Assembly: GCA_045588085.1 (NCBI GenBank)
Contig: JAZNDN010000081.1
Span: 1,542 to 65,541, forward strand
From: Eubacteriales bacterium
Lineage (GTDB): Bacteria; Bacillota; Clostridia; Oscillospirales; CAG-272
DNA length: 64,000 nt
Direction: 5' to 3'
In this document: positions 2,001 to 29,453 of the stretch, piece by piece
How positions within the stretch are numbered: position 1 is the first letter of the stretch
Layout: each line of letters opens with the position of its first letter
The notes under the pieces: model-generated
What the model was told of the DNA's origin: nothing
What the model saw: only the letters and a program-made list of their open reading frames with translations
Database searches by the model: none
Made by a program: the position numbers and the translations under genes

Positions 2001-3026
2001 TCAGTCGATTTCGACAATCCAGCCCTCAGGTGCCTCAATACGTCCCATCTGAATACCGGTAAGGGTTTCATAGAGCTTCTTGGTGGTGGGGCCCATCTCG
2101 GTCATACCTGCGGGGAAGCAGATTTCACGGCCGTGGTCAACTATCTTGCCGACGGGGGAAATAACTGCCGCGGTACCGCAAAGACCGCACTCGGTGAAGC
2201 TGTCAAGCTCGCTCTTGCTGATAACGCGCTCCTCCGCCTCAAGTCCGAGGTATTCACGCGCAACTACCATAAGAGAACGGCGAGTGATAGAAGGAAGAAT
2301 GCTCTCCGACTTGGGAGTGACTACGCCGCCGTCCTTAGTAACGAAGATTACGTTTGCTCCGCCGGTTTCTTCAATTGTCGTGTGAGTTGCAGCATCAAGA
2401 TATACGTTCTCGTCGTATCCCTGCTCGTGAGCGTCTACAATGTTGTAAAGGCTCATTGCATAGTTAAGACCTGCCTTGATATGACCGGTTCCGTGAGGAG
2501 CCGCACGGTCAAGGTCGGAAAGTCTGAGAGTCAGAGGTCTGACACCTCCCTTGAAGTAAGGGCCAACGGGAGTGACGAGAATGCGGAACTGATACTCGGT
2601 TGCAGGCTTAACGCCGATAACCGCATTGGTTCCCATCATGTAGGGTCTTATATAAAGGGTAGCACCGGAGCCGAACGGGGGAACGTATGCGGCGTTAGCC
2701 TTAACTACCTTTTTAACTGCCTCGATAAACTTTTCCTTGGGGTAAACAGGCATTTTGAGTCTTTTCGCGGAATCCTCAAGACGCTGCGCGTTGAGGTCGG
2801 GGCGGAAGGTAACTATTCTTCCGTCCTCGGTGGTGTACGCCTTAAGTCCCTCGAAACAGGTCTGCGCATACTGGAATACGCAAGCGCACTCGTTAAGGGT
2901 AATGGTGTGGTCCGCGGTAAGAGTACCTTCGTCCCACTTTCCATCCTTATAATTAGATACGAAGCTGTAATCGGTTTCCATATAGCCGAAGCCGAGAGAA
3001 GCCCAATCTATATTTTTCTTTTCCAT
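2001..3026 (-). CDS. ilvE: Branched-chain amino acid aminotransferase (class IV)
   Basis: 341 aa. The N-terminus reads LGFGY..TDY....Y.DGKW, followed by FEGLKAY and GTGHIKAGLNYA, which are characteristic of IlvE. It is the last gene of the T-box operon. Confidence 0.9.
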   Translation of the reverse strand: MEKKNIDWASLGFGYMETDYSFVSNYKDGKWDEGTLTADHTITLNECACVFQYAQTCFEGLKAYTTEDGRIVTFRPDLNAQRLEDSAKRLKMPVYPKEKFIEAVKKVVKANAAYVPPFGSGATLYIRPYMMGTNAVIGVKPATEYQFRILVTPVGPYFKGGVRPLTLRLSDLDRAAPHGTGHIKAGLNYAMSLYNIVDAHEQGYDENVYLDAATHTTIEETGGANVIFVTKDGGVVTPKSESILPSITRRSLMVVAREYLGLEAEERVISKSELDSFTECGLCGTAAVISPVGKIVDHGREICFPAGMTEMGPTTKKLYETLTGIQMGRIEAPEGWIVEID

Positions 3027-3036
3027 AACCGTCTCC

Positions 3037-3576
3037 TTAGTTTTTGTAATCTCTGCCCAATGACAAAGCCTTCATATTGAGCTCCTTGAGAGCTGCCTTC
3101 TTAGGCGGAACGAGCTTCTCAACTACCTCTTCAGCTCCGTCGAAGGAAAGCTCGGGGTGATTTTCAAGAAGATGACCGACTATAATCATGTTAGCAAGGC
3201 TGCTGATTCCCTCTTCCTTTGCCATCTGGGTTGCGGGAATATAGAACACGTCTACGTCATCTCTTTCTACCTTTGCATCGATAAGAGAGGAATCTACGTA
3301 TATCTGGCCGCCCTTGACTACCGTATCAGCGTATTTCTCAAGCGAGGGAAGGTTCATAACAACCAGCACGTCAGGCGCGGTTATGATAGGTGAGCCAACA
3401 GGAGTATCCGAAAGGATTACGTTACAGTTTGCGGTTCCTCCGCGCATTTCGGGGCCGTACGAGGGGAGCCAGGACACCTGAAGCTCCTCAACGAGTCCCT
3501 TGTAAGCCAAGAACTTTCCGGAGAAGAGTATACCCTGTCCACCAAAGCCTGCTATAAGTATCTCTGTGGTTTTCAT
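3037..3576 (-). CDS. 2-oxoacid:ferredoxin oxidoreductase, gamma subunit
   Basis: 179 aa. The N-terminal [13 protein letters not shown] motif is typical of OFOR gamma subunits. It overlaps the beta gene by 4 nt. Confidence 0.85.
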
Positions 3577-4331
3577 TTGCCCTCTGCCTCCTTTTCGGTT
3601 CTGTCTTTATATACACCCAAAGGATAATAAGGAAGCATATCGCTCTCTATCCATTCAAGCGCCTGCTTGGGAGTCATTCCCCAGTTGGTAGGACAAGCGG
3701 AAACTACCTCGACAAGCGAAAAGCCCTTGCCCTCAATCTGATTCTGGAACGCCTTTTTGATTGCCTTCTTGGCATTCTTTACGTTCTTTACGTTGTTTAC
3801 CGCAACGCGAGCTATATACTCAGGGCCCTCGAGAGTTGCAAGCATCTCACTAACCTTAATAGGCCAACCGCAATGCTTTACGTCACGTCCGTAAGGCGAG
3901 GTCTGGGTAACCTGACCGGGAAGGCTGGTAGGAGCCATCTGACCGCCTGTCATACCGTAAATTGCGTTATTTACGAAGATAACGGTTATATTCTCATTTC
4001 TTGCCGCGGAATGTACGGTTTCCGCCATACCGATAGATGCAAGGTCACCGTCGCCCTGATAGGTGAATACTACGTTTTCGGGGCGGCAACGCTTTATACC
4101 GGTTGCTACGGCAGGAGCTCTACCGTGCGCAGACTCTATCATATCACAGTTGAAATAATCGTATGCGAAAACGGCACAGCCTACGGGTGCAACACCGATA
4201 GCCTTACCCTCTATACCGAGCTCGTCAATAGCCTCTGCGACAAGACGGTGAATTATACCGTGAGGACAACCGGGGCAGTAGTGCAACGGCTTATCCGTCA
4301 AGGATTTCGGCTTTTCAAATACTATTGCCAT
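3573..4331 (-). CDS. 2-oxoacid:ferredoxin oxidoreductase, beta (TPP-binding) subunit
   Basis: 252 aa. It has a CPGCPHG cysteine motif and the TPP motif [11 protein letters not shown]...[11 protein letters not shown]. Confidence 0.9.
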
Positions 4332-4333
4332 AA

Positions 4334-5395
4334 TCAGAACTCTCCTTTCTCTGCCTTGAATATAGCAGAAAGCACCTCTTCGGGTGTAGGAATCATACCG
4401 CCTACGCGATTGCAGAGCGATATGGGCTTTTTACACTCGGTGGCAAGTCTTACGTCCTCTATCATCTGTCCCATGCTGAGCTCGACGGATATGAAGGATT
4501 TAACCTTATCTGCGGCTGCTCTGAGAGCTGCTGTGGGGAACGGCCAAAGGGTGATAGGACGGATAAGACCGACCTTTATACCCTGACGTCTTGCCTCTGC
4601 AACTGCATTTTTAGCTACTCTTGAAGCAATACCGAAGGCAACGACGCAAATCTCTGCATCCTCCATCATGTATTCCTCCCACATAGCCTCACTCTTCTCT
4701 ATTTCCTTATACTTTTCAAAGCGCTCAAAGTTCACCTTTTCGAGCTCATCGGCTTTCAGGTAAAGAGAGTTTACTATATTGTGCTTACGCTTGCACTCGG
4801 TGCCGGTAAGCGCCCAAGGCTTCTCGTAGGTTTCGGTTTCTGTGTCCTCAAAGGTTATAGGCTCCATCATCTGACCTATGGTTCCGTCAGCGAGAATCAT
4901 GGAAACCATGCGGTACTTATCTGCAAGCTCGAAGCCCTTGATTGTAAGGCTCGCCATCTCCTGAACCGAAGCGGGAGCAAGAACTATCATGCGATAGTCG
5001 CCGTGTCCGCCGCCCTTGGTTGCCTGGAAATAATCCGCCTGAGAGGGCTGAATACCGCCAAGACCGGGGCCTCCGCGCTGTACGTTAACTACGAGTGCGG
5101 GAACGTCTGAGCCTGCTATGTAGCTGAGTCCCTCTGCCTTAAGAGATATTCCGGGGCTTGACGAGGACGTCATAACGCGCATACCTGCCGCAGATGCTCC
5201 GTAAACCATGTTTATAGATGCAATTTCGCTCTCTGCCTGAAGGAACACTCCTCCGATTTTGGGCATTTTCTTTGCCATATAAGCGGCAATCTCGGTCTGA
5301 GGGGTGATGGGGTATCCGAAATAGTGACGGCAGCCTGCTCTGATAGCCGCCTCTGCAATAGCTTCGTTACCCTTCATTAAAATTCTTTCTGCCAT
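4334..5395 (-). CDS. 2-oxoacid:ferredoxin oxidoreductase, alpha subunit
   Basis: The ORF track starts at 5419 (a TTG). I prefer the ATG at 5395, which gives [22 protein letters not shown] and has AAGGAGG 8 nt upstream. The sequence is typical of OFOR alpha subunits. Confidence 0.85.
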
Positions 5396-5408
5396 AATAA
5401 TAGCCTCC

Positions 5409-5615
5409 TTACTTTTCAACCGTTATTATGCAATCGGGGCACATAGTAGCGCAGAAGGCACAGCCTATACACTTTTCCTGCTCCTTCATGTACGCCGGAG
5501 AATAACCCTTGGGATTGAGTTTATCCTCTGCGATTGCAAGACATTTCTTGGGGCAAGCGTCTACGCAAAGACCGCAGCCCTTACACATATCGGTGTTAAA
5601 AGTTACTTTAGTCAA
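5409..5615 (-). CDS. 2-oxoacid:ferredoxin oxidoreductase, delta subunit (2x[4Fe-4S] ferredoxin)
   Basis: 68 aa with a TTG start preceded by GGAGG. It has two CxxCxxCxxxCP motifs (CKGCGLCVDACP and CIGCAFCATMCP). Confidence 0.9.
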   Translation of the reverse strand: MTKVTFNTDMCKGCGLCVDACPKKCLAIAEDKLNPKGYSPAYMKEQEKCIGCAFCATMCPDCIITVEK

Positions 5616-5659: not shown

Positions 5660-6328
5660 TCAGAGTGGCAGGTCGAAATATTTCTTCTGAAGCGAAAGAG
5701 GCATCACGGGTATTCCCGAAAGCCCCTCGGCTACACTGCGCTCAGCGGTATGAAGCCAAATCGGAAGCCCGGTAGCCCTGCTTACGCTTTCTGCAAAGGC
5801 AACCGAATCCATAACCGTCTTTGGCGTAGTTTCTCTGCCAATATTAGAGTTGTTTACGATACAGTTGAAGCGTATCCCGCACGCCTCCTCTATTTCTCTC
5901 ATAATCTCCACGGCACCCTCTACGTCAGACGTCAGCGGTCTGTGGCAATTAAGAACGAACGCCATGCGGTAATCACCCTCTGCTTTTATCGCATCGGCAA
6001 ATCTTCCAAGCGCGTATGCGCCTCTGTCGTCACCGCCGATATCTACAACTCCGAAGCAGGATTTATCCTGAACGATGCGGTAGCTCGCCGCAGGAATTGC
6101 GGGAACGTCTACGTTCGTATTCGCATAATCAGAGCATATAAGCGTAATTCCGCGCTCTTTGAGCTCGCTCTCGCTATCCTTGGTTCTGAAATACGGATTC
6201 ACTATGTCCAAGTCAGCGATACATACCTTTTTGCCTTCATCTGCCAGAAGCATTGCATAGTTGACGGCAATATTGGTTTTGCCGCTGCCGTAATGCCCTG
6301 CAAAAAGGGTTAATCTTTTATGTTCCAT
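5660..6328 (-). CDS. P-loop NTPase of unknown role (MinD/ParA/GPN-loop-like)
   Basis: 222 aa. It has a Walker A motif GHYGSGKTN followed by ADLDIVNPYF and VVDIGGDD. I see no recognisable partner-specific motif. Confidence 0.6.
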   Translation of the reverse strand: MEHKRLTLFAGHYGSGKTNIAVNYAMLLADEGKKVCIADLDIVNPYFRTKDSESELKERGITLICSDYANTNVDVPAIPAASYRIVQDKSCFGVVDIGGDDRGAYALGRFADAIKAEGDYRMAFVLNCHRPLTSDVEGAVEIMREIEEACGIRFNCIVNNSNIGRETTPKTVMDSVAFAESVSRATGLPIWLHTAERSVAEGLSGIPVMPLSLQKKYFDLPL

Positions 6329-6367: not shown

Positions 6368-8641
6368 TCAAAGTAATTTTCTTATTATCTTTCCGCTGGT
6401 AGTCTTGGGAAGACTCTCGTGGAATTCGACTATTCTCGGATACTTATAAGGCGCGGTACGGGACTTGACGTAATTCTGAATTTCGCGCTTAAGCTCGTCG
6501 GTTCCCTCGTGACCCTTTACAAGCACTATGCTTGCCTTTACGACCTGACCGCGAATTTCATCGGGAGCTGCCGAAACACCGCACTCAAGAACGTACGGAA
6601 GCTCCATGATAACGTTCTCTATCTCAAACGGACCTATGCGGTATCCCGACGACTTAATAACGTCATCGGCACGGCCGACGTACCAGAGGAATCCGTCCTC
6701 ATCGCGCCATGCAAGGTCTCCTGTATGATAGTATCCGTCACGCCAGGTTTCCGCAGTGATTTCGGGATTGCCTTCATAAGCATAAGCAAGTCCGCAAGGC
6801 AGACCGTTTGAAATATTTATGCATATCTCTCCGCTCTCACCGCTGGCAACCTCCTCGCCCTCGGAGCTAAGAAGATGCACGTCGTAAAGCGGTACAGGCT
6901 TACCCATAGAACCAATTTTATGGCTTCCGCCTGCAAGGTTACCGATAATAAGGGTGCTCTCGGACTGACCGAAGCCCTCCATAATCTTAAGACCCGTATG
7001 GTTCTCGAACTGGCGGAACACCTCGGGGTTAAGCGCCTCGCCTGCCGTCGATGCGTGCTCTATGCTTGAAAGGTCAAAGCGGGAAAGGTCCTGCTTGATA
7101 AGCATTCTGTACATCGTGGGCGGTGCGCAGAAGGTAGTGATGCTATACTTTTTGAACAGAGGAAGTATCTTCTCCGCATCGAAACGGTCAAAGTCGTATA
7201 CGAAGGTTGCCGCCTCGCAAAGCCACTGACCGTAAAGCTTGCCCCACATAGCCTTTGCCCAACCGGTATCGGATATGGTAAGGTGAAGTCCGTCGGGGTT
7301 GACCTGGTGCCAGTATTTTGCAGTAATGAAATGTCCAAGAGGATACTTATAATTATGCGCTGCAATTTTGGGATACCCCGACGTTCCCGAGGTGAAGAAC
7401 ATAAGCATAGGGTCTTCTCCGCAGGGAGCGTCCTCGGTGCGCAGGTAGTGGCTGCTGTATATTGTGTATTCGTCATCGAAGCTATGCCAGCCATCGCGGT
7501 TGCCTCCGACGAGTATTTTATGCTCAAGGCCGGGGCACTTTGCCGCCGCGGAATCTACCGAATCCGCGACCTCTCCGTCTGCTGTGCAGAGTATTGCCTT
7601 TACCTTACCGGCGTTGAATCTGTATTCAAAATCCTTCTCAAGAAGCTGATTCGGAGCGGGTATTGCAATCGCTCCGAGCTTATGTAAGCCGAGAATTGCG
7701 AACCAGAACTGATAATGACGCTTAAGAACGAGCATCACACGGTCACCGCGCTTTATGCCGAGAGATTTGAAATAGTTTGCAGCTCTCGCGGACTCTCTTT
7801 GCATATCCTTGAAGGTAAATCTGCGCTCGGTACCGTCACCGCTTATGTGAAGCATGGCAAGCTTATCGGGCTTGCGCGCACCGAGTGCATCAACGACGTC
7901 AAAGGCGAAATTGAAGCTGTTTTCGTTTTTGAAGGATATCTCGGTAAGAGCTCCGTCCTTTTCGACGGGAATAATAAAATCGTGATAAACTCTCTGCTGC
8001 TTGTCTTCATCGCGACGTTTGGTAGTTTCAGAGGCTGCTGCCTCCTGCTCTCCCTCTCGTGCCGCCTGATTGCGAAGCACGATAGCATAGAAGGAACAAT
8101 CCTCGCCGCCGACGGCTATCATTCCGTGAGGTGTGCCGGAATCGTAGTATATGCTGTCGCCCGGATTCAGAATTTCGGTATGGTCGCCTATCTGAATTTT
8201 CATCTGACCGGTTATGACGATATCGCATTCCTGACCCTCGTGAGTCACAAGCTCTATTTTCTCACCCTCAGCACCCTCATGGTAATTCATCTCCATGTAA
8301 AGAGGAAGTGCTATACGGTTACGGAAGCCTGATGCAAGGCTGTATCCAACCATGTGATGAGCCTCTTCTATTCGCTGACCGTCACCCTTTCTCGTCAGAG
8401 CGTAGGACCTGAGCTTAGGGCTTTTGCCCTCGATAATATCACCCATATCAACGCCGAAGCTGAGCGTGCAGTGGTAAAGGAATGCTATGCTGAGGTTTCT
8501 GTTACCTGCCTCACACTCCTCGTACTCGCTCTCGCTCATTCCGGTACGCTCTGCCATCTCGGCAACCGAAAGTCCGGTTATCTCACGCAGCTCGCGTATA
8601 CGGTCGGCAATCTGCTTTATCTTATGCTCCATTGTATCCAT
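6368..8641 (-). CDS. Fusion protein: XRE-type HTH + cupin domain (about aa 1-190) fused to an AMP-forming acyl-CoA synthetase (about aa 215-757)
   Basis: The HTH reads LSVAEMAERTGMSESEYEECEAG. The cupin reads GDSIYYDSGTPHGM. The adenylate-forming motifs are FFTSGTSGYPK, YHTGD and SGKIIRK. The RBS is AAGAGGTG upstream of ATG 8641. Confidence 0.85.
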   Translation of the reverse strand: MDTMEHKIKQIADRIRELREITGLSVAEMAERTGMSESEYEECEAGNRNLSIAFLYHCTLSFGVDMGDIIEGKSPKLRSYALTRKGDGQRIEEAHHMVGYSLASGFRNRIALPLYMEMNYHEGAEGEKIELVTHEGQECDIVITGQMKIQIGDHTEILNPGDSIYYDSGTPHGMIAVGGEDCSFYAIVLRNQAAREGEQEAAASETTKRRDEDKQQRVYHDFIIPVEKDGALTEISFKNENSFNFAFDVVDALGARKPDKLAMLHISGDGTERRFTFKDMQRESARAANYFKSLGIKRGDRVMLVLKRHYQFWFAILGLHKLGAIAIPAPNQLLEKDFEYRFNAGKVKAILCTADGEVADSVDSAAAKCPGLEHKILVGGNRDGWHSFDDEYTIYSSHYLRTEDAPCGEDPMLMFFTSGTSGYPKIAAHNYKYPLGHFITAKYWHQVNPDGLHLTISDTGWAKAMWGKLYGQWLCEAATFVYDFDRFDAEKILPLFKKYSITTFCAPPTMYRMLIKQDLSRFDLSSIEHASTAGEALNPEVFRQFENHTGLKIMEGFGQSESTLIIGNLAGGSHKIGSMGKPVPLYDVHLLSSEGEEVASGESGEICINISNGLPCGLAYAYEGNPEITAETWRDGYYHTGDLAWRDEDGFLWYVGRADDVIKSSGYRIGPFEIENVIMELPYVLECGVSAAPDEIRGQVVKASIVLVKGHEGTDELKREIQNYVKSRTAPYKYPRIVEFHESLPKTTSGKIIRKLL

Positions 8642-8815: not shown

Positions 8816-9060
8816 AATAAAAAAGCGTCTCAAGAAAGCATTCCTGAGACGAGTAGAATATACCCGCGGTACCACTCATTTTGCGGAAAAACCGCCACCT
8901 TTGACTCCTGCAAGCCATTGCCCTTAACGCGGGAAACGTAGAACCCTAACCGACGCTCAGGCTCTCAACTCGGAAGTGATGGGTACCATGGCTTTTTGCT
9001 ATCGGCTTGCACCGCCCGCCGACTCTCTGAAAGCTTATTTTGCCGTACCGTCTTCGTCAC
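8816..9060 (-). promoter_or_regulatory. T-box riboswitch leader, specifier AUC (Ile)
   Basis: The minus strand shows a Stem I base GTGACGAAG...CTTCCGAG, the AGAGAG element, the distal loop GGTGCAAG, and the specifier AUC (8980..8978) followed by A. The T-box sequence is AAAATGAGTGGTACCGCGGG (8882..8863). The terminator is CGTCTCA-12 nt-TGAGACG plus a U-tract (8851..8816). Confidence 0.8.
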
Positions 9061-9090
9061 AGTCTTTAAAAGTATTAAATTTACGAGAAT

Positions 9091-9119
9091 ATTATAGCAC
9101 CTCTTTTTCCAAATGTCAA
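9091..9119 (-). promoter_or_regulatory. Consensus sigma-A promoter driving the T-box leader
   Basis: The minus strand reads TTGACA (9119..9114), 17 nt, then TATAAT (9096..9091). It lies about 25 nt upstream of Stem I. Confidence 0.7.
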
Positions 9120-9224
9120 ATACTTTTTGTCAAAAAACCGCACAAAATTTCAAATAACACACATTTAAAGTTCGTGTATTCTATTAAATTACCGCCAAAA
9201 AACAAATATTTTTGACCTCTGCTA

Positions 9225-9253
9225 TTGACAAAATGCGGATTTAATGCTTAAAT
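9225..9253 (+). promoter_or_regulatory. Sigma-A type promoter for the LeuA-like operon
   Basis: TTGACA (9225..9230), 17 nt, then TTAAAT (9248..9253). The RBS AAAGGAG lies before ATG 9336. Confidence 0.5.
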
Positions 9254-9335
9254 ATATGTTATCTCTTGGAATTTGCACAAAAAGAATTCAGCAAACAGGT
9301 CCGAGCGATTTTTCTGAAAAGGAGACTCACAAGTT

Positions 9336-10739
9336 ATGAGACAAATTACAATCAGTGACGCAACAATGAAACAGTCCTCAGAGGAGCTTCGCCTTAGCTT
9401 TAAGGAGAAGATTGAGCTCTCTAAGCTCCTAGACAAGCTCGGAGTGGATATCATTGAGCTGGAGGGTATAAAAAATCCTCGCATTGATGCCTTGCAGATA
9501 AAGTCAATAGTCGCAGCAGTCAGCGACAGTCGCATAGCTGTTCCCGTCGAGCTGCTCAACAATGAAAATATCGAAAAAACCTGGGCTGCGCTGAAAAACG
9601 CAAAAAATCCAAGGCTTCAGGTTTGCGCGGCTACAAGCCCCGTGCAAATAGAATATCTCTTCCATAAAAAACCCGAGGCCATGCTTGAAGCTATAAGCAG
9701 CACCGTTGCAGCCTGCCGCGCGCTCTGCTCTGACGTAGAGTTCGTCGCGTACGATGCAACCCGCAGTGAATCCTCTTTCCTTGCCGATGCTATAAACGCG
9801 GCAATTTCAGCAGGTGCGGCAACGGTAACGCTTTGCGACACCGCAGGCACTATGCTTCCCTCCGAGTTCGCGGAATTTATCCGCGCTCAGTACGAGGCAG
9901 TTCCCAAGCTTCGCGACCTTACGCTCGGAGTTTGCTGCTCTGACACCATAGCTATGGCTGACGCTTGCGCAGTTATGGCAGCCGCAGAGGGAGCTGCACA
10001 TATACGTACGGCGGCATATTCACTCAGCGAAGCCTCACTTTCCAACGTAGTTCGTATTCTCTGTGCAAAGTCAGACTCGTTAAACGCTTCCGTCGGAGTA
10101 AGAGCGACTCAGCTCAGCCGTATAATTTCTCAGATAGAGCGTCTTTGCCAGACCGGCAAGAGCAAGAGCAATGCTTTGGAATCGGAGGATGACGGAACAT
10201 TCCTCACCGTTCACGATACGAAGGAAGCAGTTGCGGCAGCAACCGCCAAGCTCGGATACGACCTCTCGGACGAGGATGCCGAAAAGGTATACGCCTCATT
10301 CAAGCAGATTGCAGACAAAAAGGAAAAGGTATCCTTCAGAGAGCTTGATGCCATAGTCGCATCCTCTGCCATGCAGGTTCCCTCAACCTATAAGCTCGAT
10401 ACTTACGTCATCACCTCCGGAAACACAATTTCCGCAACCGCACATATAAAGCTTGAAAAGAACGGCCACCACGTTGAAGGCGTTTACATCGGCGACGGCT
10501 CAATAGACGCAGCGTTTCAGGCTATTGAAAAAATCACCGGCTGCCACTATGAGCTTGACGATTTCCAGCTCCAAGCAGTTACCGAAGGACGCGAGGCTAT
10601 GGGACAGACGATAGTTAAGCTTCGCTCGGGAGGAAAGGTTTATTCGGGAAGAGGCATCTCAACCGATATCGTTGGCGCGGGTATTCAGGCATACCTGTCC
10701 GCTCTTAACAAAATCATATACGAGGAGGAAGTAGAATGA
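9336..10739 (+). CDS. 2-isopropylmalate synthase-like protein (HMGL-like barrel + LeuA dimerisation/regulatory domain) with degenerate catalytic motifs
   Basis: 467 aa. The N-terminus ITISDATMKQSS..LSFKEKIELSKLLDKLGVDIIELEG parallels the LeuA region DTTLRDGEQ..LS.EEK. The C-terminus GDGSIDAAFQAIEKI...GRGISTDIVGAGIQAYLSALNKI matches the LeuA regulatory domain. The HxH metal motif is replaced by CCS. Confidence 0.75.
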   Translation: MRQITISDATMKQSSEELRLSFKEKIELSKLLDKLGVDIIELEGIKNPRIDALQIKSIVAAVSDSRIAVPVELLNNENIEKTWAALKNAKNPRLQVCAATSPVQIEYLFHKKPEAMLEAISSTVAACRALCSDVEFVAYDATRSESSFLADAINAAISAGAATVTLCDTAGTMLPSEFAEFIRAQYEAVPKLRDLTLGVCCSDTIAMADACAVMAAAEGAAHIRTAAYSLSEASLSNVVRILCAKSDSLNASVGVRATQLSRIISQIERLCQTGKSKSNALESEDDGTFLTVHDTKEAVAAATAKLGYDLSDEDAEKVYASFKQIADKKEKVSFRELDAIVASSAMQVPSTYKLDTYVITSGNTISATAHIKLEKNGHHVEGVYIGDGSIDAAFQAIEKITGCHYELDDFQLQAVTEGREAMGQTIVKLRSGGKVYSGRGISTDIVGAGIQAYLSALNKIIYEEEVE

Positions 10740-13246
10740 AGCTCTCCTTTTCAACAAGAGGCTGGCCCTCTCTTTCCTTTGACGAAATGCTCGACGTTGC
10801 CTCCGATATGGGCTTCTCCGGCGTTGAGGTTTACAATTTGACCAAATTCGATCCGTTAATGGAAAAGGGCGGACCCTTCCACAAATATAACATAGCCGCT
10901 ACCGTCCGCAAGCTGCGTGACAGGGCTATATCTATCCCTTGTTTTGACACGTCCATAGACCTTTCTTCCGACAAGAACGCTGTGGCATCTGTTATAAGCC
11001 TTATTGAAACAGCACACGGGGCAAGGGTTCCGTACGTTGCGGTTTGCGCTTTATCGGATGACGAGAAGACGGTGGGCGCGGCTCTGACAGAGCTTTTGCC
11101 GATTGCCACGGAGAAAAACGTCTGTATACTTATAAAAACCAGCGGCATTTATTCCAATACGGCAAGGCTGCGCGAAATGCTTGACAGATTTGCCAGCGAT
11201 AATCTTGCTGCTCTTTGGGACGTACACCATCCTTACAGAGATAACGCCGAGTCGGGTGACGACACTATAAAGAATTTGGGCTCGTATGTTTGTCACGTTC
11301 ACATGCGCGACTCCGACGACGAGGGTACCTATCAGCTTATCGGTGAGGGAACAATGCCGATAGACGACGTTATGCGCGCGCTTTCCTCGGTTAATTACGA
11401 TGCCTTCATCTCTCTTGAATGGAAGCCCGAATGGATGACCGACCTTCAAGACCCGGAGGTTATTTTCCCGTATTTTGTAAACTATATGTCACGTTTTCAC
11501 TCTACGAGAGATATGCAGAAGAGCCTTTACTTCAACCATGACGGCACCGGTCAGTACGTCTGGAAGAAGGATGAACTTATAGATTTGACCTTCTCGGAGG
11601 TTCTTGACAGAGTGGCTGACGAGTTCCCCGACCAGTATTGCTTCAAGTACACCACGCTGGACTACACGCGTACATATTCTCAGTTCCGTGAGGACGTAGA
11701 CCGTTTTGCCAGAGCCCTTGTTTCACTGGGCGTCAAGGCAGGCTCAAAGGTCGCAGTCTGGGCAACTAACCTACCCGCGTGGTATATAACGTTCTGGGCA
11801 ACGACCAAGCTTGGCGCGGTTCTCGTTACGGTAAATACCGCATACAAAATACACGAGGCAGAGTATCTGCTTCGCCAGTCGGACACTCACACACTCGTTA
11901 TGATTGAGAGCTGTCTTGACTCGAATTACAAGGAAATAATTAACACGCTCTGCCCCGAACTCAAGAAAACAGTACCCGGAGAGCCTCTGCACTCAAAGAG
12001 GCTTCCGTTCCTGCGTAACGTTATCACGGTTGGATTCAAGCAGGAGGGCTGCCTTACGTTCGACGAGGCAATGGCGCGTTACAGTCTTGTCAGCCGCGAG
12101 CAGATTGCCAGAATGGCGGCAGCGGTCAAGCCGAGCGACGTATGCAATATGCAGTACACCTCCGGCACGACGGGATTCCCCAAGGGTGTTATGCTCACCC
12201 ACTATAACGTAGTGAACAACGGAAAGTGTATCGGCGACCGCATGGGACTTTCCACCGCGGACAGAATGATGATACAGGTGCCTATGTTCCATTGCTTTGG
12301 AATGACGCTTTCCATGACGTCGTCAATGACGCACGGCGCCACAATGTGCCCGATGCCGTATTTCTCTGCGAAATCCTCGCTTGCTTGCATAAACCAAGAA
12401 AAAATCACCTGTTTTAACGGTGTTCCCACCATGTTTATTGCAATGTTCAACCACCCGAACTACCGCAGCACCGATTTTTCGCACATGAGAACCGGTATTA
12501 TGGCGGGTGCGGGTTGCCCCCCCGAGCTTATGAAGCGTGCCGCAGACCCCGCAGAGATGAATATGACGGGTATTGTAAGCGTTTACGGACAGACCGAGTG
12601 TGCCCCCGGTAACACCATGAGCTCCTGGACGGATTCTCTTGAGGTCCGCACCGAAACAGTGGGCTGCGCATTCCCTCACGTTATGTGTAAAATAGTAAAT
12701 CCCGAAACCGGTGAAGAGGTTGGCCCGGGTATCAACGGTGAATTTTGCGCCAAGGGCTACAACACCATGAAGGGCTACTACAAGATGCCCGATGCAACGA
12801 AGGGCACTATCGACGAGGAGGGCTGGCTTCATTCAGGAGACCTTGCCTGCCGTGACGAAAACGGAAACTACAAAATCACAGGACGTCTGAAGGATATGAT
12901 TATCCGCGGCGGTGAGAACATTTACCCCAAGGAAATTGAGGAATTTATATACACGCACCCGATGACCAAGGACGTGCAGGTCATAGGAGTACCCGACAAG
13001 AAGTACGGCGAAGAGATTATGGCGTGTATCATTCTCAAAGAGCCCGGAAGCATAACGGTGGAAGAAATGACGGCTTATATCAAAGCCAGCATGGCGCGCC
13101 ACAAGGTCCCCAAGTACATTGAGTTCGTCGACAGCTTCCCTATGAATGCAGCAGGAAAAGTTCTCAAATACAAAATGCGCCAGGATGCAGCGCAGCGTCT
13201 GGGACTCGTCGGCGATGGCTCAGATACGGCTTCTCCCGGAAAATAA
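10736..13246 (+). CDS. Fusion protein: xylose-isomerase-like TIM barrel (sugar phosphate isomerase/epimerase family, about aa 1-260) fused to an AMP-dependent acyl-CoA ligase (about aa 290-836)
   Basis: The TIM-barrel part reads GFSGVEVYN, HVHMRDSD and YDAFISLEWKPEW. The ligase motifs are YTSGTTGFPKGV, GWLHSGD and AGKVLKYKMR. The start overlaps the upstream stop (ATGA). Confidence 0.8.
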   Translation: MKLSFSTRGWPSLSFDEMLDVASDMGFSGVEVYNLTKFDPLMEKGGPFHKYNIAATVRKLRDRAISIPCFDTSIDLSSDKNAVASVISLIETAHGARVPYVAVCALSDDEKTVGAALTELLPIATEKNVCILIKTSGIYSNTARLREMLDRFASDNLAALWDVHHPYRDNAESGDDTIKNLGSYVCHVHMRDSDDEGTYQLIGEGTMPIDDVMRALSSVNYDAFISLEWKPEWMTDLQDPEVIFPYFVNYMSRFHSTRDMQKSLYFNHDGTGQYVWKKDELIDLTFSEVLDRVADEFPDQYCFKYTTLDYTRTYSQFREDVDRFARALVSLGVKAGSKVAVWATNLPAWYITFWATTKLGAVLVTVNTAYKIHEAEYLLRQSDTHTLVMIESCLDSNYKEIINTLCPELKKTVPGEPLHSKRLPFLRNVITVGFKQEGCLTFDEAMARYSLVSREQIARMAAAVKPSDVCNMQYTSGTTGFPKGVMLTHYNVVNNGKCIGDRMGLSTADRMMIQVPMFHCFGMTLSMTSSMTHGATMCPMPYFSAKSSLACINQEKITCFNGVPTMFIAMFNHPNYRSTDFSHMRTGIMAGAGCPPELMKRAADPAEMNMTGIVSVYGQTECAPGNTMSSWTDSLEVRTETVGCAFPHVMCKIVNPETGEEVGPGINGEFCAKGYNTMKGYYKMPDATKGTIDEEGWLHSGDLACRDENGNYKITGRLKDMIIRGGENIYPKEIEEFIYTHPMTKDVQVIGVPDKKYGEEIMACIILKEPGSITVEEMTAYIKASMARHKVPKYIEFVDSFPMNAAGKVLKYKMRQDAAQRLGLVGDGSDTASPGK

Positions 13247-13453: not shown

Positions 13454-13897
13454 TTAATATTGCATTTTCATATTCATTCGCCTGGTGGATATCTTTATAG
13501 CAAAATAAACGGAACACCATATTGCAAGATAAACACCAAGGAATACAAGTGTAAATATCAAAATTACCAAAGGTTCAAAGGGTATCCATGAATTTAACGT
13601 ATAACACAGCACGTACGCCACGTAAAGCGTTGAAAAATGGCACAGCAAGGATTTCGCTAACGGCCAATGCTCAATTTGGTTAAATATAGAAGCGCCTGCC
13701 TGAACAAAGGCAAGAAGATACGTTGACAAAATGGCAACGAAGACATCCGTGCCGCTAAATCTGACGCCGCCGTCGAGGACGTTATCCAAAATTATGAATA
13801 CAATTCCGCATATTATAGGACCGAATCCGGCAAAAATCGCACCTCTGTGCAAAAAGGTTTTTATATAATATTTTTTCGTATACTCTATATCATCCAT
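13454..13897 (-). CDS. Multi-pass membrane protein (DUF3021-like), partner of the LytTR regulator
   Basis: 147 aa with four hydrophobic segments and an FNQIEHWPL motif. It lies 17 nt downstream of the LytTR gene. Confidence 0.6.
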   Translation of the reverse strand: MDDIEYTKKYYIKTFLHRGAIFAGFGPIICGIVFIILDNVLDGGVRFSGTDVFVAILSTYLLAFVQAGASIFNQIEHWPLAKSLLCHFSTLYVAYVLCYTLNSWIPFEPLVILIFTLVFLGVYLAIWCSVYFAIKISTRRMNMKMQY

Positions 13898-13914
13898 TTA
13901 TATTCACCTCCGTA

Positions 13915-14361
13915 TCACAATCCGAGCGCCTTTTTAACCGTCTTAAGCTGACGGCGGGAAACGTAGTCAACGTACCCCGAAGCGAAGCTTATCGTCATTG
14001 CCGCTCCGAACGAAGCACCAAAACGCTTAATTTTCTTTATATTGGCAAGAGAAGACTGATTTATCTTGACAAATCCCGCAAGCTCCATTTGCTCTATCTC
14101 GTACAGGCGTTTTTTTATCCTATACTTTCCGCTGTCGCAGATGGCGAAAAGACGTCTGTTTTCAATTACGAAAACATTTATCTCGTTTATATCAAGACGT
14201 ATCGACTGCTCACCGTCATATCCGATGATTTCATCGTTTCCCGAATCCTCAGCAAGCTTTATTATTTCTCGTATTTTATCGGTTTGCTCTCTGGCGTAAA
14301 TCTTGATTTCTTCTTCTTTTACGTCATTGCTTATATACAAGCTGCATTTCATGCGCCTCAC
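13915..14361 (-). CDS. Stand-alone LytTR-domain DNA-binding regulator (no receiver domain)
   Basis: 148 aa. The C-terminal FVKINQSSLANIKKIKRF......ISFASGYVDYVSRRQLKTVKKALG is typical of LytTR domains. Confidence 0.75.
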   Translation of the reverse strand: MRRMKCSLYISNDVKEEEIKIYAREQTDKIREIIKLAEDSGNDEIIGYDGEQSIRLDINEINVFVIENRRLFAICDSGKYRIKKRLYEIEQMELAGFVKINQSSLANIKKIKRFGASFGAAMTISFASGYVDYVSRRQLKTVKKALGL

Positions 14362-19521: not shown

Positions 19522-19958
19522 CTCAACTCAACCTCACATTTACCGAAATTATTTTCAACTACAAATTCCCTTATAGCACGGTAATCCGCAAGCTTCGCAC
19601 GCTCACTCAGCGTAACGGTCAGAACCTCCGCTGCCATTTTTTCGGTCTGAAATCCCTTGGCACGAACGCTGATATGCTCGGCATCAAGCGAAAATCTCTC
19701 TGCTATTGCAAGACGGACCCCGTCGCAGAACGCCTCCTCGGCAGTCTTTTCAAAAACGCTCTCCTCCTCAGCACCGGAGTATTCGGGAAGCTGTGCAAAT
19801 CCCTGCCCCAAAGAAATAAGAGGAGATAAAATAGCCGAGACCAGAATTATTCCAAGTGCGGCACGCGCCGCTCTCTCTGCCTTTCCCGACGATAAAACGA
19901 AGCCCGCAAACGCCACGGCGCAGGATGCACAAAAAATCGTAACAAGATGCGCGCTCAT
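19518..19958 (-). CDS. spoIIIAF: Stage III sporulation protein AF
   Basis: 146 aa with two N-terminal TM segments. It overlaps both neighbouring genes by 4 nt. Confidence 0.75.
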   Translation of the reverse strand: MSAHLVTIFCASCAVAFAGFVLSSGKAERAARAALGIILVSAILSPLISLGQGFAQLPEYSGAEEESVFEKTAEEAFCDGVRLAIAERFSLDAEHISVRAKGFQTEKMAAEVLTVTLSERAKLADYRAIREFVVENNFGKCEVELR

Positions 19959-21313
19959 ACCGCAGGAACTCCAAACTTTAAGAATATAATAACCTCTAAA
20001 ACATACACGAGTGATGAAAATGCGAAAACCGATATAAGCATATCAAAGGCATAAAGTGCCGATGACAGTATTCCCGCCCCCAGCTTTCCGCCGGTCATTT
20101 CCAAAAAGGAAATGCATATTCTGAATGCAATACGGTAAAGGAGCAGCTTTATAAGCGGCGCACCGAGAACGGTAAGCAATGCTGCAAGGGATACGGCACC
20201 AACGGTGCCCTTGGCAAGATTTACTCCGGAAGCGAGCGTTCCAAGGGCGGAGGAGACGCTTCCGCCGACTATCGGTATCATTCCGGAGATTGCATATTTC
20301 ATCCCTCTGAGCGTCATACTGTCCTGAGCTCCGGTTATCAACGTCTGCAAAGCAAGCGTTCCTGCCACTATGCTCGTCAAGCCTCCAAGCACAAGTGTGA
20401 AAAAGCTCTTAGCCCCTCTGATTACCGGTGCAACGCTGCCTCCAACGTCGAAGGAGGCTATGAGCCCGAGCGCCATCATGAGCATAACTATCGGAAGAAG
20501 CCCGTCCCTGACAAAAAACGACACGGCTGATAGGGTAAAGCTCATTCCCGCCGCCTCAGCAGCAGCCGTCGCAACCCCACCGCCTATTGCGCTTACCGAC
20601 GTAAAAACAGGTATCAGACCCGAAAAAAGCTCCGTTGCGGATTGCAAGCCGTCCCGAACCGAATATACAATTCCCGAAACAGAGGCAAAAATCGGAACCG
20701 AAAGAACCATAGCTACGCCGCCGGTCATGCCGGACGAAAGCTCTCCTGCATTGAAGGCGGTAAGCTCTGCGGCAAGCAAAAGAGCCGACACGCCAAACAG
20801 CATAATCAGAAATCCGCCAACCTCACCGTCTCCGCCAAGCAAATTCAAAACGGAGGAAACGACGTTATCCGGTGAAAATCCCGAGGCAAGCCCACTGAGG
20901 TCACCGTCATTGCCCACGTCGGCAAATTCACCGATATGTACGAAGAAACCGTCAAGTATTTCGGATAGCTCGTCTGAAAAATCCGCCCCCTCGGTGCCAA
21001 ACGGGTTGTCGGTGCCCTCAATTAAGCTGTATGAGCATGCGTGCGCATCAAGACGCTCGGTATATAAACCGTAGCACGCCCCCCGACCTGCACGCGCCAC
21101 AGAGAAAATCCCGGGAAGCAAAACCGCAACGCCTGCGGCAAAAAACAGCATCGCAAAAATCATGCGCCCTCTGCGCCCCTCGGGAAGCCTAGGGATTTTA
21201 TCCAATCCGCAGACCGAAGCATCGCGGCAGACGCGAGAGTGAAAAAGCGCGGAATTATTCTTTTCCAATCTTATCATTTCCTTTATGTCCTTTTTTTGCG
21301 GCAATTTTGACAT
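19955..21313 (-). CDS. spoIIIAE: Stage III sporulation protein AE (polytopic membrane protein)
   Basis: 452 aa with many Gly/Ala-rich TM segments. The first 50 aa, before MIFAMLFFAAGVAVLL, may not be translated, so the true start is uncertain. Confidence 0.8.
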   Translation of the reverse strand: MSKLPQKKDIKEMIRLEKNNSALFHSRVCRDASVCGLDKIPRLPEGRRGRMIFAMLFFAAGVAVLLPGIFSVARAGRGACYGLYTERLDAHACSYSLIEGTDNPFGTEGADFSDELSEILDGFFVHIGEFADVGNDGDLSGLASGFSPDNVVSSVLNLLGGDGEVGGFLIMLFGVSALLLAAELTAFNAGELSSGMTGGVAMVLSVPIFASVSGIVYSVRDGLQSATELFSGLIPVFTSVSAIGGGVATAAAEAAGMSFTLSAVSFFVRDGLLPIVMLMMALGLIASFDVGGSVAPVIRGAKSFFTLVLGGLTSIVAGTLALQTLITGAQDSMTLRGMKYAISGMIPIVGGSVSSALGTLASGVNLAKGTVGAVSLAALLTVLGAPLIKLLLYRIAFRICISFLEMTGGKLGAGILSSALYAFDMLISVFAFSSLVYVLEVIIFLKFGVPAV

Positions 21314-25121: not shown

Positions 25122-28100
25122 TTATTCCGCTGAGCTGCTCGTGGAGATATTTGCAACTCCCGAGAAGGATCTGGTCAACGAAATATCAAGATTAAGCTTT
25201 GCATTTACGTCTTCTCTGAATGCATTGTACTGCTTCATATATTCCTTGTAGTTAGCATACGCGGTCTGCATAGATGCAACACCCTGATATCTGTCGATAT
25301 TAAGAGAGTTAAATCCGTTGTTAACACGCGCCAGACACTTGAAGAAGTCCGTAGTTCTGGTGGTAAATGCATATTTCGTATCTATGTATCTCTTACAGTC
25401 GTTAGCATACTTGATAATATCCTTAGGTGTAAGAGTTTCGATAGTTTCCTGCGCACCACCGCCACCGGAGGAGCTACCACCGCCGATTCCTGCGTTCTTG
25501 CCGTCGTATTTCTCTTCGGGAACCCAGTCACGCATATCGATGTAATCATACTCAACAGGCACGTTGGTATCCTCTTCAAGTTCAAGAAGCTCAATTACAA
25601 CAGCTACGTTGAAGTTCATCGCGCCCTTGTTTCTGATTACAAGTCTTCTGAGCTTGTTACGCGAGTACTGCGGCTCGGCACCCATGCTCTCTGAATAACC
25701 CCAAGGATGAGTCTTTTCAAGAAGGAAGGTAGATACACCGGCATCAAGAAGCTCAAACTTAAGGTCGGTAGCGCGCTCCTCGACGATACTAACTCTTACG
25801 GTATGCACCATAGAATCAGCGGATATCTGCTTCTTAAGATATGCGGTTCTGCCGTCATCTGAAAGCGTTATGTCACTTATTTCCGTATGCGCAATCCAAG
25901 CCAAGTCAAGCGAGGACTTGAGACCTATCTGGTCCTGAATAACCACAGTCTGTCTGTCGTTAGTCAAAAGAAGTCCGCGATACATAGTGTTCGAATAGGG
26001 AGCGAAGAGCGATGTCGTATCAAGAACTGCCTTTATACCGTATTCGTTGGAAATATATTCGTCGTAGAGGAAGTCGGCTTTTCCGTTGTACAACTGACCG
26101 TAAGGAATCTGCTCGGGAAGGTTGGTAACAATCATTACGTTATGACCTTCTCCGATACATCTGTAGTAGTGCTGTCTTGTAGGTGCTGAGAAATAGTTGT
26201 AAAGGTCGTACTCGTCTGCACCGGGATCGCAGAACCAGATGGTATTGAGGTTGGAGTAAATCCAGTTTCCGCAGTCAATCTGTCCGTGCGCGGTACAGTT
26301 GTTTGCATCGCCGAGAATACCGGTGAACAGACACCCGTCATCCCATTCGGATCTCGCGAAGACACCGTTAAGGTTCTCAACTACGTAGTCGCGGTCAAGA
26401 ACGACATCGTCCATTGAAAGACTAAGATATTCCTTCTTATATCCGAGAATATCCTCTATAGTTACAGACTTTCCTGCTTTAATATGCTCAAGACGGATAG
26501 CCGCAAGCGCGGGGTCTCCGAGATACTGGGAAATGAAGAAGAACAGCTCGGTGGACTGCTGACCGAGAGAGGAGTCGTGGAAGTTCCAGTAGGAATACAT
26601 GCCCTTTTTGTTTTCATCAGAGGGGAACTCACTCTGTACTGCAAAGTACCAGGTGGTATCCATACCCGCATAGTCAAGAACTCCGCAATCGTCTCCGGTC
26701 GCCGTAACGAGACCCCAAAGCATTATCGTAAGGTTGTTAGTAGCGTATGCCCAATAACCGGGTGACTCTATGAACGAACCGTCCGGCGGATACTGGTTAA
26801 GACCGAGGCGGCACATTGTTTCAAAGTTGGACGCCATGGTGAAGTAGAGCAGGTTTTCCGTGTTGGTGGGAATATGCTCGCCTCCTCCGAGGTCTTCACG
26901 TCTTTTCGATCTGGTGAAGTCTACCTCGGTATAGGTCTTGCCCTTGTAATCCTTACCCTGCTTTCTGTCAACGCCGTTGGGATCCTGCTCACCGATAATT
27001 GCAAGCTCACAAAGAGTAAGACCACCGGTACAAACAACGTTCCAGTTGATAGTCATGTCGTTGTAAGGCGTGGTACCGGGCTGAATGGACTTATCCTCGA
27101 ACCAGTCGGTCGTGTGCTTATCCACGGTTACAACGTATCCGAACCATACTATTTTCTGATACATAGCCTGAGCCATCATGTTTGTATCATAGTTAAGCTC
27201 AGTCCAGATGTCATACATCCAGTCAAACGTTCTTCCAAGCGCCTGACCAACAGCCGCTACGGCAAGGAACTGGTGCTGACCCCAGTGACGGAACTCCATG
27301 AAGGAAAGCATGATTTCCCAAAGAAGCTGTGCATACTTTACGTCGCGCGTTATTACGTATGCAAACGCTATTGACTCAATTTCGCTAGCGATACTCTGAA
27401 TAGCGCCAACACGTCCGGTTTCAATTTCAGCACCGTCGTTATAGTGCTCACCGACATAGTCGGTAGGGATTTCATCCCATTTCATATTATACTTGTAGTG
27501 AGGATACTGACCGTAGTCGTACTTTGTTTCGTACCACTTACCGTCCTTAATACCGCACTCAAGGAAGTTTGTTACTTCGTAATAGAGGTACTGATACTTA
27601 GGGTTCTTTACGGAGAAGTCAAATTCTTTGGTTTTTGCAACGTGGTCACCGGTAGGCTTAGAGGTATATTTAACGTAAAGGTTATCACCCGCCGCTACTC
27701 TCGCATCAAGCCAGGATTTGTAGGTCTCATCCTTGTATTCGTCTTCCTCATAAAGCCAAACGTTATGGATGAAGTCGAACTGCTCCTGGGTTGCGCTTAT
27801 GTAAGGATGGTCAAAGTTGTTTGTATTCTCCTTGACCTTATAGTAGAATTCCTCACCGGTGTAGTAATCGAATACGAAGTTCTTCATAATCGTGAGCATT
27901 GCGGAAAGGTCTGAATATCTGTCAAAGACACCCCCTGCCGTGCATATTGCGATAAGTCCCATCGTATCGTAGGTTACGTACCATCCGGGGAAGATCGTCT
28001 CAACGTCCTCAAGCGCTATTGCGCGGTAAGTGTTGTCACTCTTTTCCGCCTTCAGATATATGGGTGCTGCGGTAAGATTGACTCTTTCACCGTTAACTAT

Positions 28101-29435: not shown

Positions 29436-29453
29436 TTTTCTTTAACTCCTTTC

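Follow-up and report, generated by a model that had tools for sequence, protein, structure and literature searches.

In a 64,000-nucleotide stretch of DNA from a Eubacteriales bacterium (contig JAZNDN010000081.1, positions 1,542 to 65,541; hereafter the window), a single open reading frame (ORF) encodes a xylose-isomerase-like TIM barrel joined to an AMP-forming acyl-CoA synthetase (ACS). We describe here this TIM-ACS fusion, the LeuA-derived protein encoded directly upstream of it, and the regulation and gene neighborhood of its relatives, which point to a role in making leucine from a branched short-chain acid. Nearly all of the loci that we compared were metagenome-assembled, and the evidence is almost wholly comparative.

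The TIM-ACS fusion

The gene pair has the following features (aa, amino acids; ranges given in aa are those of the fusion protein):
9336..10739, + strand: LeuA-derived putative pseudoenzyme, 467 aa, translationally coupled to the fusion (HMGL-like and LeuA_dimer domains)
10722..10739, + strand: ribosome-binding site GAGGAGG and ATGA stop/start overlap (direct reading of the sequence)
10736..13246, + strand: TIM-ACS fusion ORF, 836 aa, ATG start (ORF list and translation)
10736..11500, + strand: xylose-isomerase-like TIM barrel, aa 1-255 (PF01261, AlphaFold2 model, Foldseek)
aa 26-34: GFSGVEVYN, motif in the TIM module
aa 187-194: HVHMRDSD, motif in the TIM module
aa 225-233: ISLEWKPEW, motif in the TIM module
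11126..11146, + strand: ILIKTSG, with Lys134 in place of the Glu of 'ETNG' (alignment to 3wqo, orthologues)
11213..11434, + strand: TIM pocket motifs LWDVHHPYR, HVHMRDS and SLEWKPEW (conservation in 66 orthologues and the standalone family)
11573..13204, + strand: ACS module, aa 280-823, PRK12583/FadD-like (PF00501, PF13193, NCBIfam PRK12583, core motifs)
aa 474-485: ANL core motif A3 (P-loop), YTSGTTGFPKGV
aa 616-621: ANL core motif A5, VYGQTE
aa 696-702: ANL core motif A7, GWLHSGD
aa 716-731: ANL core motif A8 (hinge), GRLKDMIIRGGENIYP
aa 806-815: ANL core motif A10, AGKVLKYKMR, with the catalytic Lys

The ATG of the fusion (10736-10738) overlaps the TGA (10737-10739) that ends the upstream 467-aa ORF, and a Shine-Dalgarno sequence, GAGGAGG (10722-10728), lies 7 nucleotides (nt) 5′ of that ATG. 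An earlier reading of this DNA made from the letters alone (the sequence-only reading) had described a single 836-aa ORF starting within an upstream ATGA, which the ORF coordinates and sequence bear out, and the motifs that it had quoted (GFSGVEVYN, HVHMRDSD, ISLEWKPEW, YTSGTTGFPKGV, GWLHSGD and AGKVLKYKMR) were all present. According to Pfam, the xylose-isomerase-like TIM barrel comes first and is joined through a linker to a complete adenylating ACS, with the domains scoring above their cutoffs.

This fusion is a widely conserved architecture of gut and rumen bacteria that is uncharacterised. The 120 best database matches were 84–90% identical to the window protein, were 827–840 aa long and carried the identical three-domain set; they came from metagenome-assembled genomes (MAGs) of Clostridia/Oscillospiraceae and were named just 'AMP-binding protein' or 'fatty-acyl-CoA synthase'. 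An alignment across the domain junction was also run against a set of genomes with one per species; it gave at least 593 matching stretches, of which we examined the best 80. The junction was spanned in all 80 of these best loci, at 65–94% identity, in Oscillospiraceae, Faecousia, Acutalibacteraceae, Lachnospiraceae, Eggerthellaceae, Tissierellia, Christensenellaceae and Solobacterium from gut and rumen, as well as in 80 loci from metagenomes, and 66 full-length, uninterrupted fusion ORFs were aligned. The domain combination is thus real, as the sequence-only reading had supposed, being kept in the 120 close homologues and the best 80 species loci; its further supposition that the combination belongs to no characterised pathway agrees with the generic annotations and with a literature search on the architecture that found no paper.

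We considered whether an assembly or sequencing artefact had joined two separate genes. In a single related contig (L007) the gene is split into ORFs of 404 aa and 425 aa, and in other lineages TIM and ACS occur as unfused gene pairs, as an artefact might predict. We rejected this explanation and give it practically no chance of being correct, because the junction recurs across the 120 database clusters, the best 80 of the at least 593 species-genome matches and the 80 metagenome loci, and does so in independent studies.

The C-terminal ~540 aa appear to form a catalytically complete AMP-forming ACS. AMP-binding (PF00501) matched aa 291-682 (E = 7e-89; 298.7 bits against a cutoff of 29.9), AMP-binding_C (PF13193) matched aa 733-808 (E = 2e-15; 58.1 bits against a cutoff of 24.5), and core motifs A3, A5, A7, A8 and A10 were present, which upholds the earlier description of a complete FadD-like adenylating enzyme. 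The ACS was also the best-conserved part of the fusion, with a column conservation of 0.8–0.98 among 66 orthologues. NCBIfam PRK12583 was covered over its full model length (aa 280-823 against model positions 14-555 of 558) at 651.9 bits, below its cutoff of 832, and the nearest solved structure matched the ACS at E = 1e-75 in two separate stretches only. The module therefore shares a full-length model match and all ANL core motifs with the PRK12583/ACSF2-like, FadD-like ANL enzymes, whereas it differs from the PRK12583 family in its sub-cutoff score, in the 255-aa TIM barrel added at its N terminus and in having orthologues under leucine T-boxes. Its sequence places it as a new lineage near PRK12583, related but distinct.

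The N-terminal module is, judging from its model, a genuine (β/α)8 barrel. AP_endonuc_2 (PF01261) matched aa 19-232 (E = 3e-19; 70.1 bits against a cutoff of 31.1). A single-sequence AlphaFold2 prediction of the whole 836 aa reached a predicted local distance difference test (pLDDT) score of 35 and was replaced by a model of the TIM domain from a 76-sequence alignment of diverse relatives, for which the pLDDT was 91.6. In Foldseek searches this model matched UlaE, AsbF and IolI with TM-scores of 0.76–0.79 at 13–17% identity, and it also superposed on ketose 3-epimerases. The module belongs to a large uncharacterised family of ~265–270-aa 'sugar phosphate isomerase/epimerase' proteins, whose standalone members share the motifs LLIETNG, LWDxHHPYR, HxHxKDS and SLEWVKRW.

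The sequence-only reading had likened the N terminus to sugar isomerases and epimerases. The TIM fold and the PF01261 match support the likeness, but the name itself is unsafe because the window TIM lacks the canonical Glu134. The xylose-isomerase-like fold has four canonical ligands, Glu-Asp-His-Glu, and we take the Glu of ETNG to be the first of them; its position aligns with the Glu of LEN in 3wqo, and in our alignment of the wider TIM family Glu is at least 90% conserved there. In the window protein the ligand set is incomplete, with D162, H189 and E228 present and the first Glu replaced by Lys134, and among 66 fusions linked to a LeuA-like gene residue 134 is K in 53, E in nine, R in three and Y in one. 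The residues D162, H164, H165, R168, H187, H189, D192, E228 and W229 are nearly invariant, both in the 66 orthologues and in the standalone family. Because Lys134 replaces Glu while these other pocket residues are nearly invariant, the pocket appears to be conserved and strongly basic yet non-canonical. Simple decay of the TIM domain was rejected, given the near invariance of the pocket motifs.

Compared with the ketose 3-epimerase, UlaE, AsbF and IolI group, then, the window TIM has the same fold, and its D162, H189 and E228 hold three of the four ligand positions. It differs in its low identity to that group (13–17%), in the Lys at the first ligand, in an unusually basic pocket (HHPYR, HxRDS, EWKPEW), and in being of a type that is fused to or encoded beside adenylating enzymes, with no sugar-metabolism genes nearby.

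The LeuA-derived partner and leucine T-boxes

Searching the loci with the window's neighboring genes by tblastn, we found the LeuA-like gene directly upstream of the fusion in every one that had enough upstream DNA. Of 62 loci, 48 kept the 4-nt ATGA overlap between its end and the start of the fusion and six others overlapped by 1 nt, so that the tight coupling to a LeuA-like neighbor noted in the sequence-only reading is a conserved trait. The same reading's term 'LeuA-like' holds in that the protein, which NCBI names 'hypothetical protein', is a LeuA paralogue, but it should not be taken to mean a synthase, for the metal and catalytic ligands are all lost. The best LeuA model, NF002086, scored 299 bits against an equivalog cutoff of 532. 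Relative to Neisseria meningitidis LeuA (3rmj), the RD of RDGEQ has become KQ, HCH has become CCS, and the catalytic E has become Y; the Asp/His/His metal ligands were absent in all 68 LeuA-like orthologues. The LeuA_dimer domain (PF08502; aa 334-460 of the partner, E = 1.7e-31) was retained, and this C-terminal regulatory domain was the best-conserved region of the protein (conservation ~0.85 in the 68 orthologues). Because the ligands are gone throughout while the regulatory domain is the best-conserved part, we treat the partner as a predicted pseudoenzyme that has kept its allosteric domain. A sequence search of the PDB with its C terminus gave a marginal match to the CimA regulatory domain (E ~1), onto which no leucine-site residues could be mapped.

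The partner shares with LeuA and CimA a two-domain layout, a DRE-TIM HMGL-like barrel followed by LeuA_dimer, and is clearly LeuA-derived. It differs from both in the replacement of the Asp/His/His ligands and catalytic Glu in 68 of 68 orthologues, and from LeuA in always being paired with a TIM-ACS gene instead of leuBCD. In a Senegalimassilia MAG, the region 5′ of the LeuA-like gene contains a c-di-GMP-I riboswitch that is encoded on the other strand (L061, 7612..7685, − strand).

T-boxes turn on the genes behind them in response to uncharged cognate tRNA, and they typically control genes of supply. The region upstream of the gene pair, together with the divergent operon that begins there, contains the following:
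9225..9253, + strand: promoter-like TTGACA-N17-TTAAAT with an upstream TG (read by eye and given little weight; absent from the consensus-scan list)
9119..9091, − strand: perfect sigma-70 promoter, TTGACA-17-TATAAT, upstream of the Ile T-box
8842..9069, − strand: T-box leader with an AUC (Ile) specifier (Rfam RF00230, 96.6 bits; specifier from alignment and stem I)
8851..8826, − strand: intrinsic terminator hairpin at the Ile T-box
6368..8641, − strand: HTH-cupin-ACS fusion, MbcS-like (Pfam HTH_31, Cupin_2, AMP-binding, AMP-binding_C)
5660..6328, − strand: P-loop CbiA/ParA-like protein, 222 aa (Pfam/NCBIfam, weak CbiA/ParA/Mrp similarity)
5409..5615, − strand: ferredoxin VorD (small ORF, Pfam/NCBIfam)
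4334..5419, − strand: VorB (Pfam/NCBIfam)
3573..4331, − strand: thiamine pyrophosphate (TPP) beta subunit (Pfam/NCBIfam)
3037..3576, − strand: gamma subunit (Pfam/NCBIfam)
2001..3026, − strand: IlvE (Pfam/NCBIfam)

The sole Rfam T-box of the window is the Ile leader at 8842..9069, which controls the divergent HTH-cupin-ACS/P-loop/VorDBAC/IlvE operon. On the + strand between 8600 and 9450, Rfam found no T-box and no RNA family even at E ≤ 1. The LeuA-like operon starts ~80 nt past the promoter-like site, and the segment at 9198-9259 aligns to the promoter region of a related locus, L012, in which a ~300-nt Leu T-box follows that is missing here. Compared with L012 (5048..8132) and L010, the window segment 8642..9335 has lost both the Ile-type paralogue of the HTH-cupin-ACS gene (paralogue B) and the ~300-nt Leu leader, such that the Ile T-box of the window now precedes the A-type (Val-type) synthetase. 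Two 85% relatives, L001 and L002, likewise have no Leu leader. Because the window operon has no Leu T-box, our regulatory argument rests on its orthologues.

In nine of these (L012, L014, L021, L030, L034, L056, L063, L068 and L084), Rfam placed a + strand T-box directly before the LeuA-like gene. For most loci we read the specifier codons with our own heuristic motif-plus-stem parser, run over 80 loci, with these results:
Leaders before the LeuA-like gene (n = 49): Leu 45 (CUG 33, CUC 10, CUA 1, UUA 1)
Leaders before HTH-cupin-ACS paralogue B: Ile (AUC) 34
Leaders before HTH-cupin-ACS paralogue A: Val (GUC/GUA) 9

The parser thus assigned a Leu specifier to 45 of the 49 leaders in front of the LeuA-like gene, among which the wobble base varied and the encoded amino acid did not. 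The leaders of the HTH-cupin-ACS paralogues served as a control, and read Ile (34) and Val (9). Taken together, the loci appear to encode three synthetases under three cognate tRNA switches with one shared oxidoreductase/IlvE set, and because T-boxes activate on uncharged cognate tRNA, the three synthetases would be genes for the supply of Leu, Ile and Val.

Leucine T-boxes also precede fusions that have no LeuA-like partner. Another 80 fusions, with 32–42% identity to the window protein in the TIM module and 61–69% in the ACS, came from the metagenome scan, which found them in bioreactor, fermentation and gut samples; the fusions of this second clade had no LeuA-like gene and no conserved neighbor hinting at a TIM reaction. 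Here the Glu at residue 134 was kept in 62 of 62 sequences, completing the canonical ligand set. A T-box lay directly before the fusion in 20 of 66 loci of the LeuA-less clade, with CUC (Leu) as the specifier in 17 by the parser and in two more by eye; Rfam confirmed six of these leaders, and CUC was visible in the printed alignments. Thus the TIM-ACS itself, with or without the dead LeuA, belongs to the leucine T-box regulon in orthologous loci of two clades. At equal ACS divergence, TIM identity was ~10 points lower in the LeuA-linked clade than in the LeuA-less clade (for example, 56% versus 68%), which is consistent with a change or loosening of TIM function after the arrival of the LeuA-like partner. 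A possible origin of that partner may be glimpsed in a high-GC metagenome contig (L156, 3261..7361), in which a genuine leuA, its RDGEQ and HCHND motifs intact, lies 40 nt downstream of a Glu-type TIM-ACS.

The two modules also occur apart. L168–170 carry an orthologous ACS at 53% identity with a free-standing TIM gene, at 34% identity, after it, and this pair adjoins a separate HTH-cupin gene and an MbcS-like ACS; L172 and L173 have adjacent genes for a class-IV aminotransferase, a TIM protein and an ACS of a different subfamily. Standalone TIM genes in Caldicoprobacter, Caldicellulosiruptor and two other contigs had neither an ACS nor a T-box nearby, indicating that the standalone family is not always ligase-associated. 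Directly upstream of the standalone genes in Caldicellulosiruptor and Caldicoprobacter lie small divergent ORFs without a Pfam match (L004, 7457..7855, − strand, 132 aa, and L003, 7431..7874, − strand, 147 aa, respectively).

Neighboring genes and the rest of the window

The sequence-only reading had pointed to two domain-fused ligases side by side. A second fused ligase (6368..8641) does adjoin the gene pair, but it is divergently transcribed and belongs to another operon. It scored 418 bits against NCBIfam MbcS, whose cutoff is 850, and is therefore MbcS-like and not MbcS; its orthologues sit behind Val or Ile T-boxes. The HTH(XRE)-cupin-ACS combination, of which there are two paralogues, is another uncharacterised architecture, and in a Ruminiclostridium-like lineage it is split between two genes, one for the HTH-cupin part (198 aa) and one for the ACS (551 aa) (L168, 6869..9138).

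The VorDBAC/IlvE/P-loop block accompanied the LeuA-like/TIM-ACS pair in three gene orders, being divergent, co-directional upstream, or downstream. Five loci had a PFOR-type, single-chain 2-oxoacid:ferredoxin oxidoreductase 2–89 nt downstream of the fusion, and IlvE was encoded directly downstream of it in L086 and L087. The P-loop gene always lay between the HTH-cupin-ACS and VorD genes (28 loci), and its product may serve the oxidoreductase as a factor for Fe-S maturation or assembly.

Two further gene types were seen close to these genes. Amidohydro_2 (PF04909) genes, a possible further component of the system, were found in five independent contexts as immediate neighbors either of the fusion or of the split ACS-TIM pair:
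L068, 12053..12844: Amidohydro_2
L086, 5163..5960: Amidohydro_2
L087, 13241..14026: Amidohydro_2
L138, 2618..3406: Amidohydro_2
L168, 3380..4240: Amidohydro_2

In two contexts (L168, 2480..3259; L131, 15417..16184), ACS-TIM genes have a SIR2-family deacetylase gene in their vicinity, a proximity that recalls the control of acyl-CoA synthetases by acetylation.

Just downstream of the fusion, a gene pair for a DUF3021 membrane protein and a LytTR DNA-binding protein (13454..14361, − strand) is not conserved beside the fusion in other loci. Elsewhere in the window, two very large ORFs (25122..32015, − strand) are almost without family matches, the one of 1437 aa having a Cu_amine_oxidN1 repeat only and the other, of 853 aa, having no Pfam match. 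The window also encodes a class-I tRNA synthetase with DUF5915 (52914..56072, + strand) and homologues of SpoIIIAE and GerA (19955..21313 and 38560..39969, both − strand), which together indicate a spore-forming member of the Clostridia.

A probable leucine arm for branched-chain acid salvage

We propose that the fusion and its dead LeuA partner constitute the leucine arm of a salvage route from branched-chain fatty acids to amino acids, with the fusion most likely an isovalerate-CoA ligase, and put the probability of this reading at about 60%. Isovalerate, as the most likely acid, would be converted to its CoA thioester by the TIM-ACS. A 2-oxoacid:ferredoxin oxidoreductase (VorDBAC here, PFOR-type elsewhere) would then reductively carboxylate the thioester to 2-oxoisocaproate, which IlvE would transaminate to leucine, and the MbcS-like HTH-cupin-ACS neighbors would serve the Ile and Val arms. 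The membership of the fusion in the regulon and its pathway context are well supported by the comparison of loci; that it is an isovalerate-CoA ligase is probable, based on the Leu regulon, the linkage to oxidoreductase and aminotransferase genes and the substrate preference of MbcS; and we infer that the pathway runs in the biosynthetic direction.

MbcS of Staphylococcus aureus is an AMP-forming enzyme that activates exogenous branched short-chain acids to acyl-CoA. It prefers isobutyric and 2-methylbutyric acid and is poor with isovaleric acid (PMC13041820), and this poor use of isovaleric acid is a plausible reason for the Leu arm to have an enzyme of its own. The HTH-cupin-ACS neighbor is a relative of MbcS (418 bits) with an extra HTH-cupin N terminus, whereas the ACS of the fusion belongs to the other, PRK12583/FadD-like subfamily and is only ~25% identical to that neighbor. 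MbcS also has no TIM domain and no LeuA-like partner, and it feeds fatty-acid synthesis, not amino-acid synthesis.

Such a route has long been part of anaerobe physiology. In the 1960s, Allison and co-workers reportedly found that rumen bacteria use reductive carboxylation to build Leu from isovalerate, Ile from 2-methylbutyrate and Val from isobutyrate, and ruminants are fed branched-chain volatile fatty acids because rumen and gut anaerobes need or use these acids for the same three amino acids. To our knowledge, the genes for the acid-activation steps have not been pinned down, and the physiology of VOR reductive carboxylation has been described without assigned activation genes. Taken together, the loci place VorDBAC and IlvE beside three T-box-controlled activating enzymes, the gene set that this physiology requires in rumen and other anaerobes, with the TIM, pseudo-LeuA, HTH-cupin and P-loop components lying outside the textbook scheme. 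The undescribed carboxylate route that the sequence-only reading had suggested is accordingly not what the comparative data favor: a leucine T-box regulon beside VOR/PFOR and IlvE matches physiology that is already known. Our literature search found no paper linking TIM-ACS or HTH-cupin-ACS fusions to VOR reductive carboxylation, and searches on T-box plus VOR plus ACS, on genes for branched-chain volatile fatty acids and on yngI found nothing relevant.

Several observations weigh against the assignment to leucine salvage. The substrate is deduced from regulation and neighbors only, the ACS falls below the PRK12583 cutoff (652 bits against 832), and it has no close characterised relative, its best PDB match being at E = 1e-75. 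The window's own LeuA-like/fusion operon lacks a Leu T-box, 24 of 73 LeuA-linked loci lack any detectable leader, and most specifiers come from our heuristic parser. Moreover, the proposed pathway needs neither the TIM barrel nor the LeuA-like protein, leaving two conserved components unexplained, and the complete ligand set of TIM in the LeuA-less clade, like the occurrence of TIM genes beside adenylating enzymes of another subfamily, suggests a catalytic TIM function outside this model.

These last points underlie the main rival, in which the TIM module, and possibly the LeuA-like protein too, is catalytic, and the pair converts a different leucine precursor in at least two steps, with TIM acting before or after CoA activation and isovalerate not being the physiological substrate. 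The near invariance of D162, H164/165, R168, H187/189, D192, E228 and W229 would suit an enzyme, as would the four canonical ligands kept in the LeuA-less clade, the Glu134 kept in nine LeuA-linked members, the standalone family genes next to adenylating enzymes of two different subfamilies, and the recurrence of Amidohydro_2 genes beside the fusion in five independent contexts. We nevertheless regard a catalytic pair as unlikely: 53 of 66 sequences of the window's clade have Lys in place of the first canonical Glu, the faster evolution of TIM in that clade (56% versus 68% identity) suggests relaxed or changed constraint, every catalytic ligand of the LeuA-like protein is missing, and the nearest structures of TIM are sugar epimerases and dehydratases at only 13–17% identity. 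We also know of no reaction that would join an enzyme of the xylose-isomerase fold to a leucine precursor.

If instead the protein were a generic medium- or long-chain fatty-acid CoA ligase, with a meaningless N-terminal domain and a coincidental branched-chain amino acid neighborhood, its best family matches (FadD-like and the PRK12583 'fatty acid CoA ligase family' models), its database names and the absence of conserved neighbors in the LeuA-less clade would all be expected. That Leu T-boxes occur in two independent clades, that the window's clade always has the LeuA-like partner, that oxidoreductase and IlvE genes recur in several rearranged orders, and that the fusion scores below every curated NCBIfam cutoff make this account very improbable. 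We give hardly more than a slim chance to a catabolic direction, from leucine to isovaleryl-CoA, in which the AMP-forming enzyme would run in reverse with pyrophosphate, releasing isovalerate and conserving ATP. The identical oxidoreductase and aminotransferase genes can run oxidatively, branched short-chain fatty acids are among the products that gut Clostridia release, and an AMP-forming synthetase reportedly runs in reverse in Syntrophus; but induction by a T-box under leucine starvation is the opposite of what a catabolic operon needs, and the Ile and Val T-boxes on the sister synthetases also point to a role in supply.

Within the leucine-salvage reading, the two add-ons might be regulatory. 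We speculate that the dead LeuA is a leucine sensor or scaffold that, together with the TIM barrel, regulates or scaffolds the synthetase without itself being catalytic. In a more specific version, which we rate as less likely than not, the dead LeuA would be an exapted allosteric sensor that has given up catalysis, retains its leucine-binding regulatory domain and docks on the TIM-ACS and stops isovalerate activation when leucine is plentiful, the TIM barrel having turned, through the change of Glu134 to Lys134, into a ligand-binding or docking module. If this were true, a feedback domain of biosynthesis would have found a second use as a separable regulator of a salvage enzyme, atop the RNA-level control by T-boxes, and the HTH-cupin modules on the Ile and Val synthetases would be a parallel arrangement.

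What is new here is an acyl-CoA synthetase that probably serves a known route and carries two unexplained conserved add-ons, the TIM module and the dead LeuA. The locus and its relatives offer a concrete gene set for that route, consisting of three acid-activating enzymes behind cognate T-boxes, one ferredoxin oxidoreductase and one aminotransferase. Hundreds of gut genomes carry annotations in the style of 'fatty-acyl-CoA synthase' or '2-isopropylmalate synthase' that the assignment would correct, and this abundant, unstudied architecture, with its conserved LeuA pseudoenzyme, may reveal a new mode of ACS regulation.

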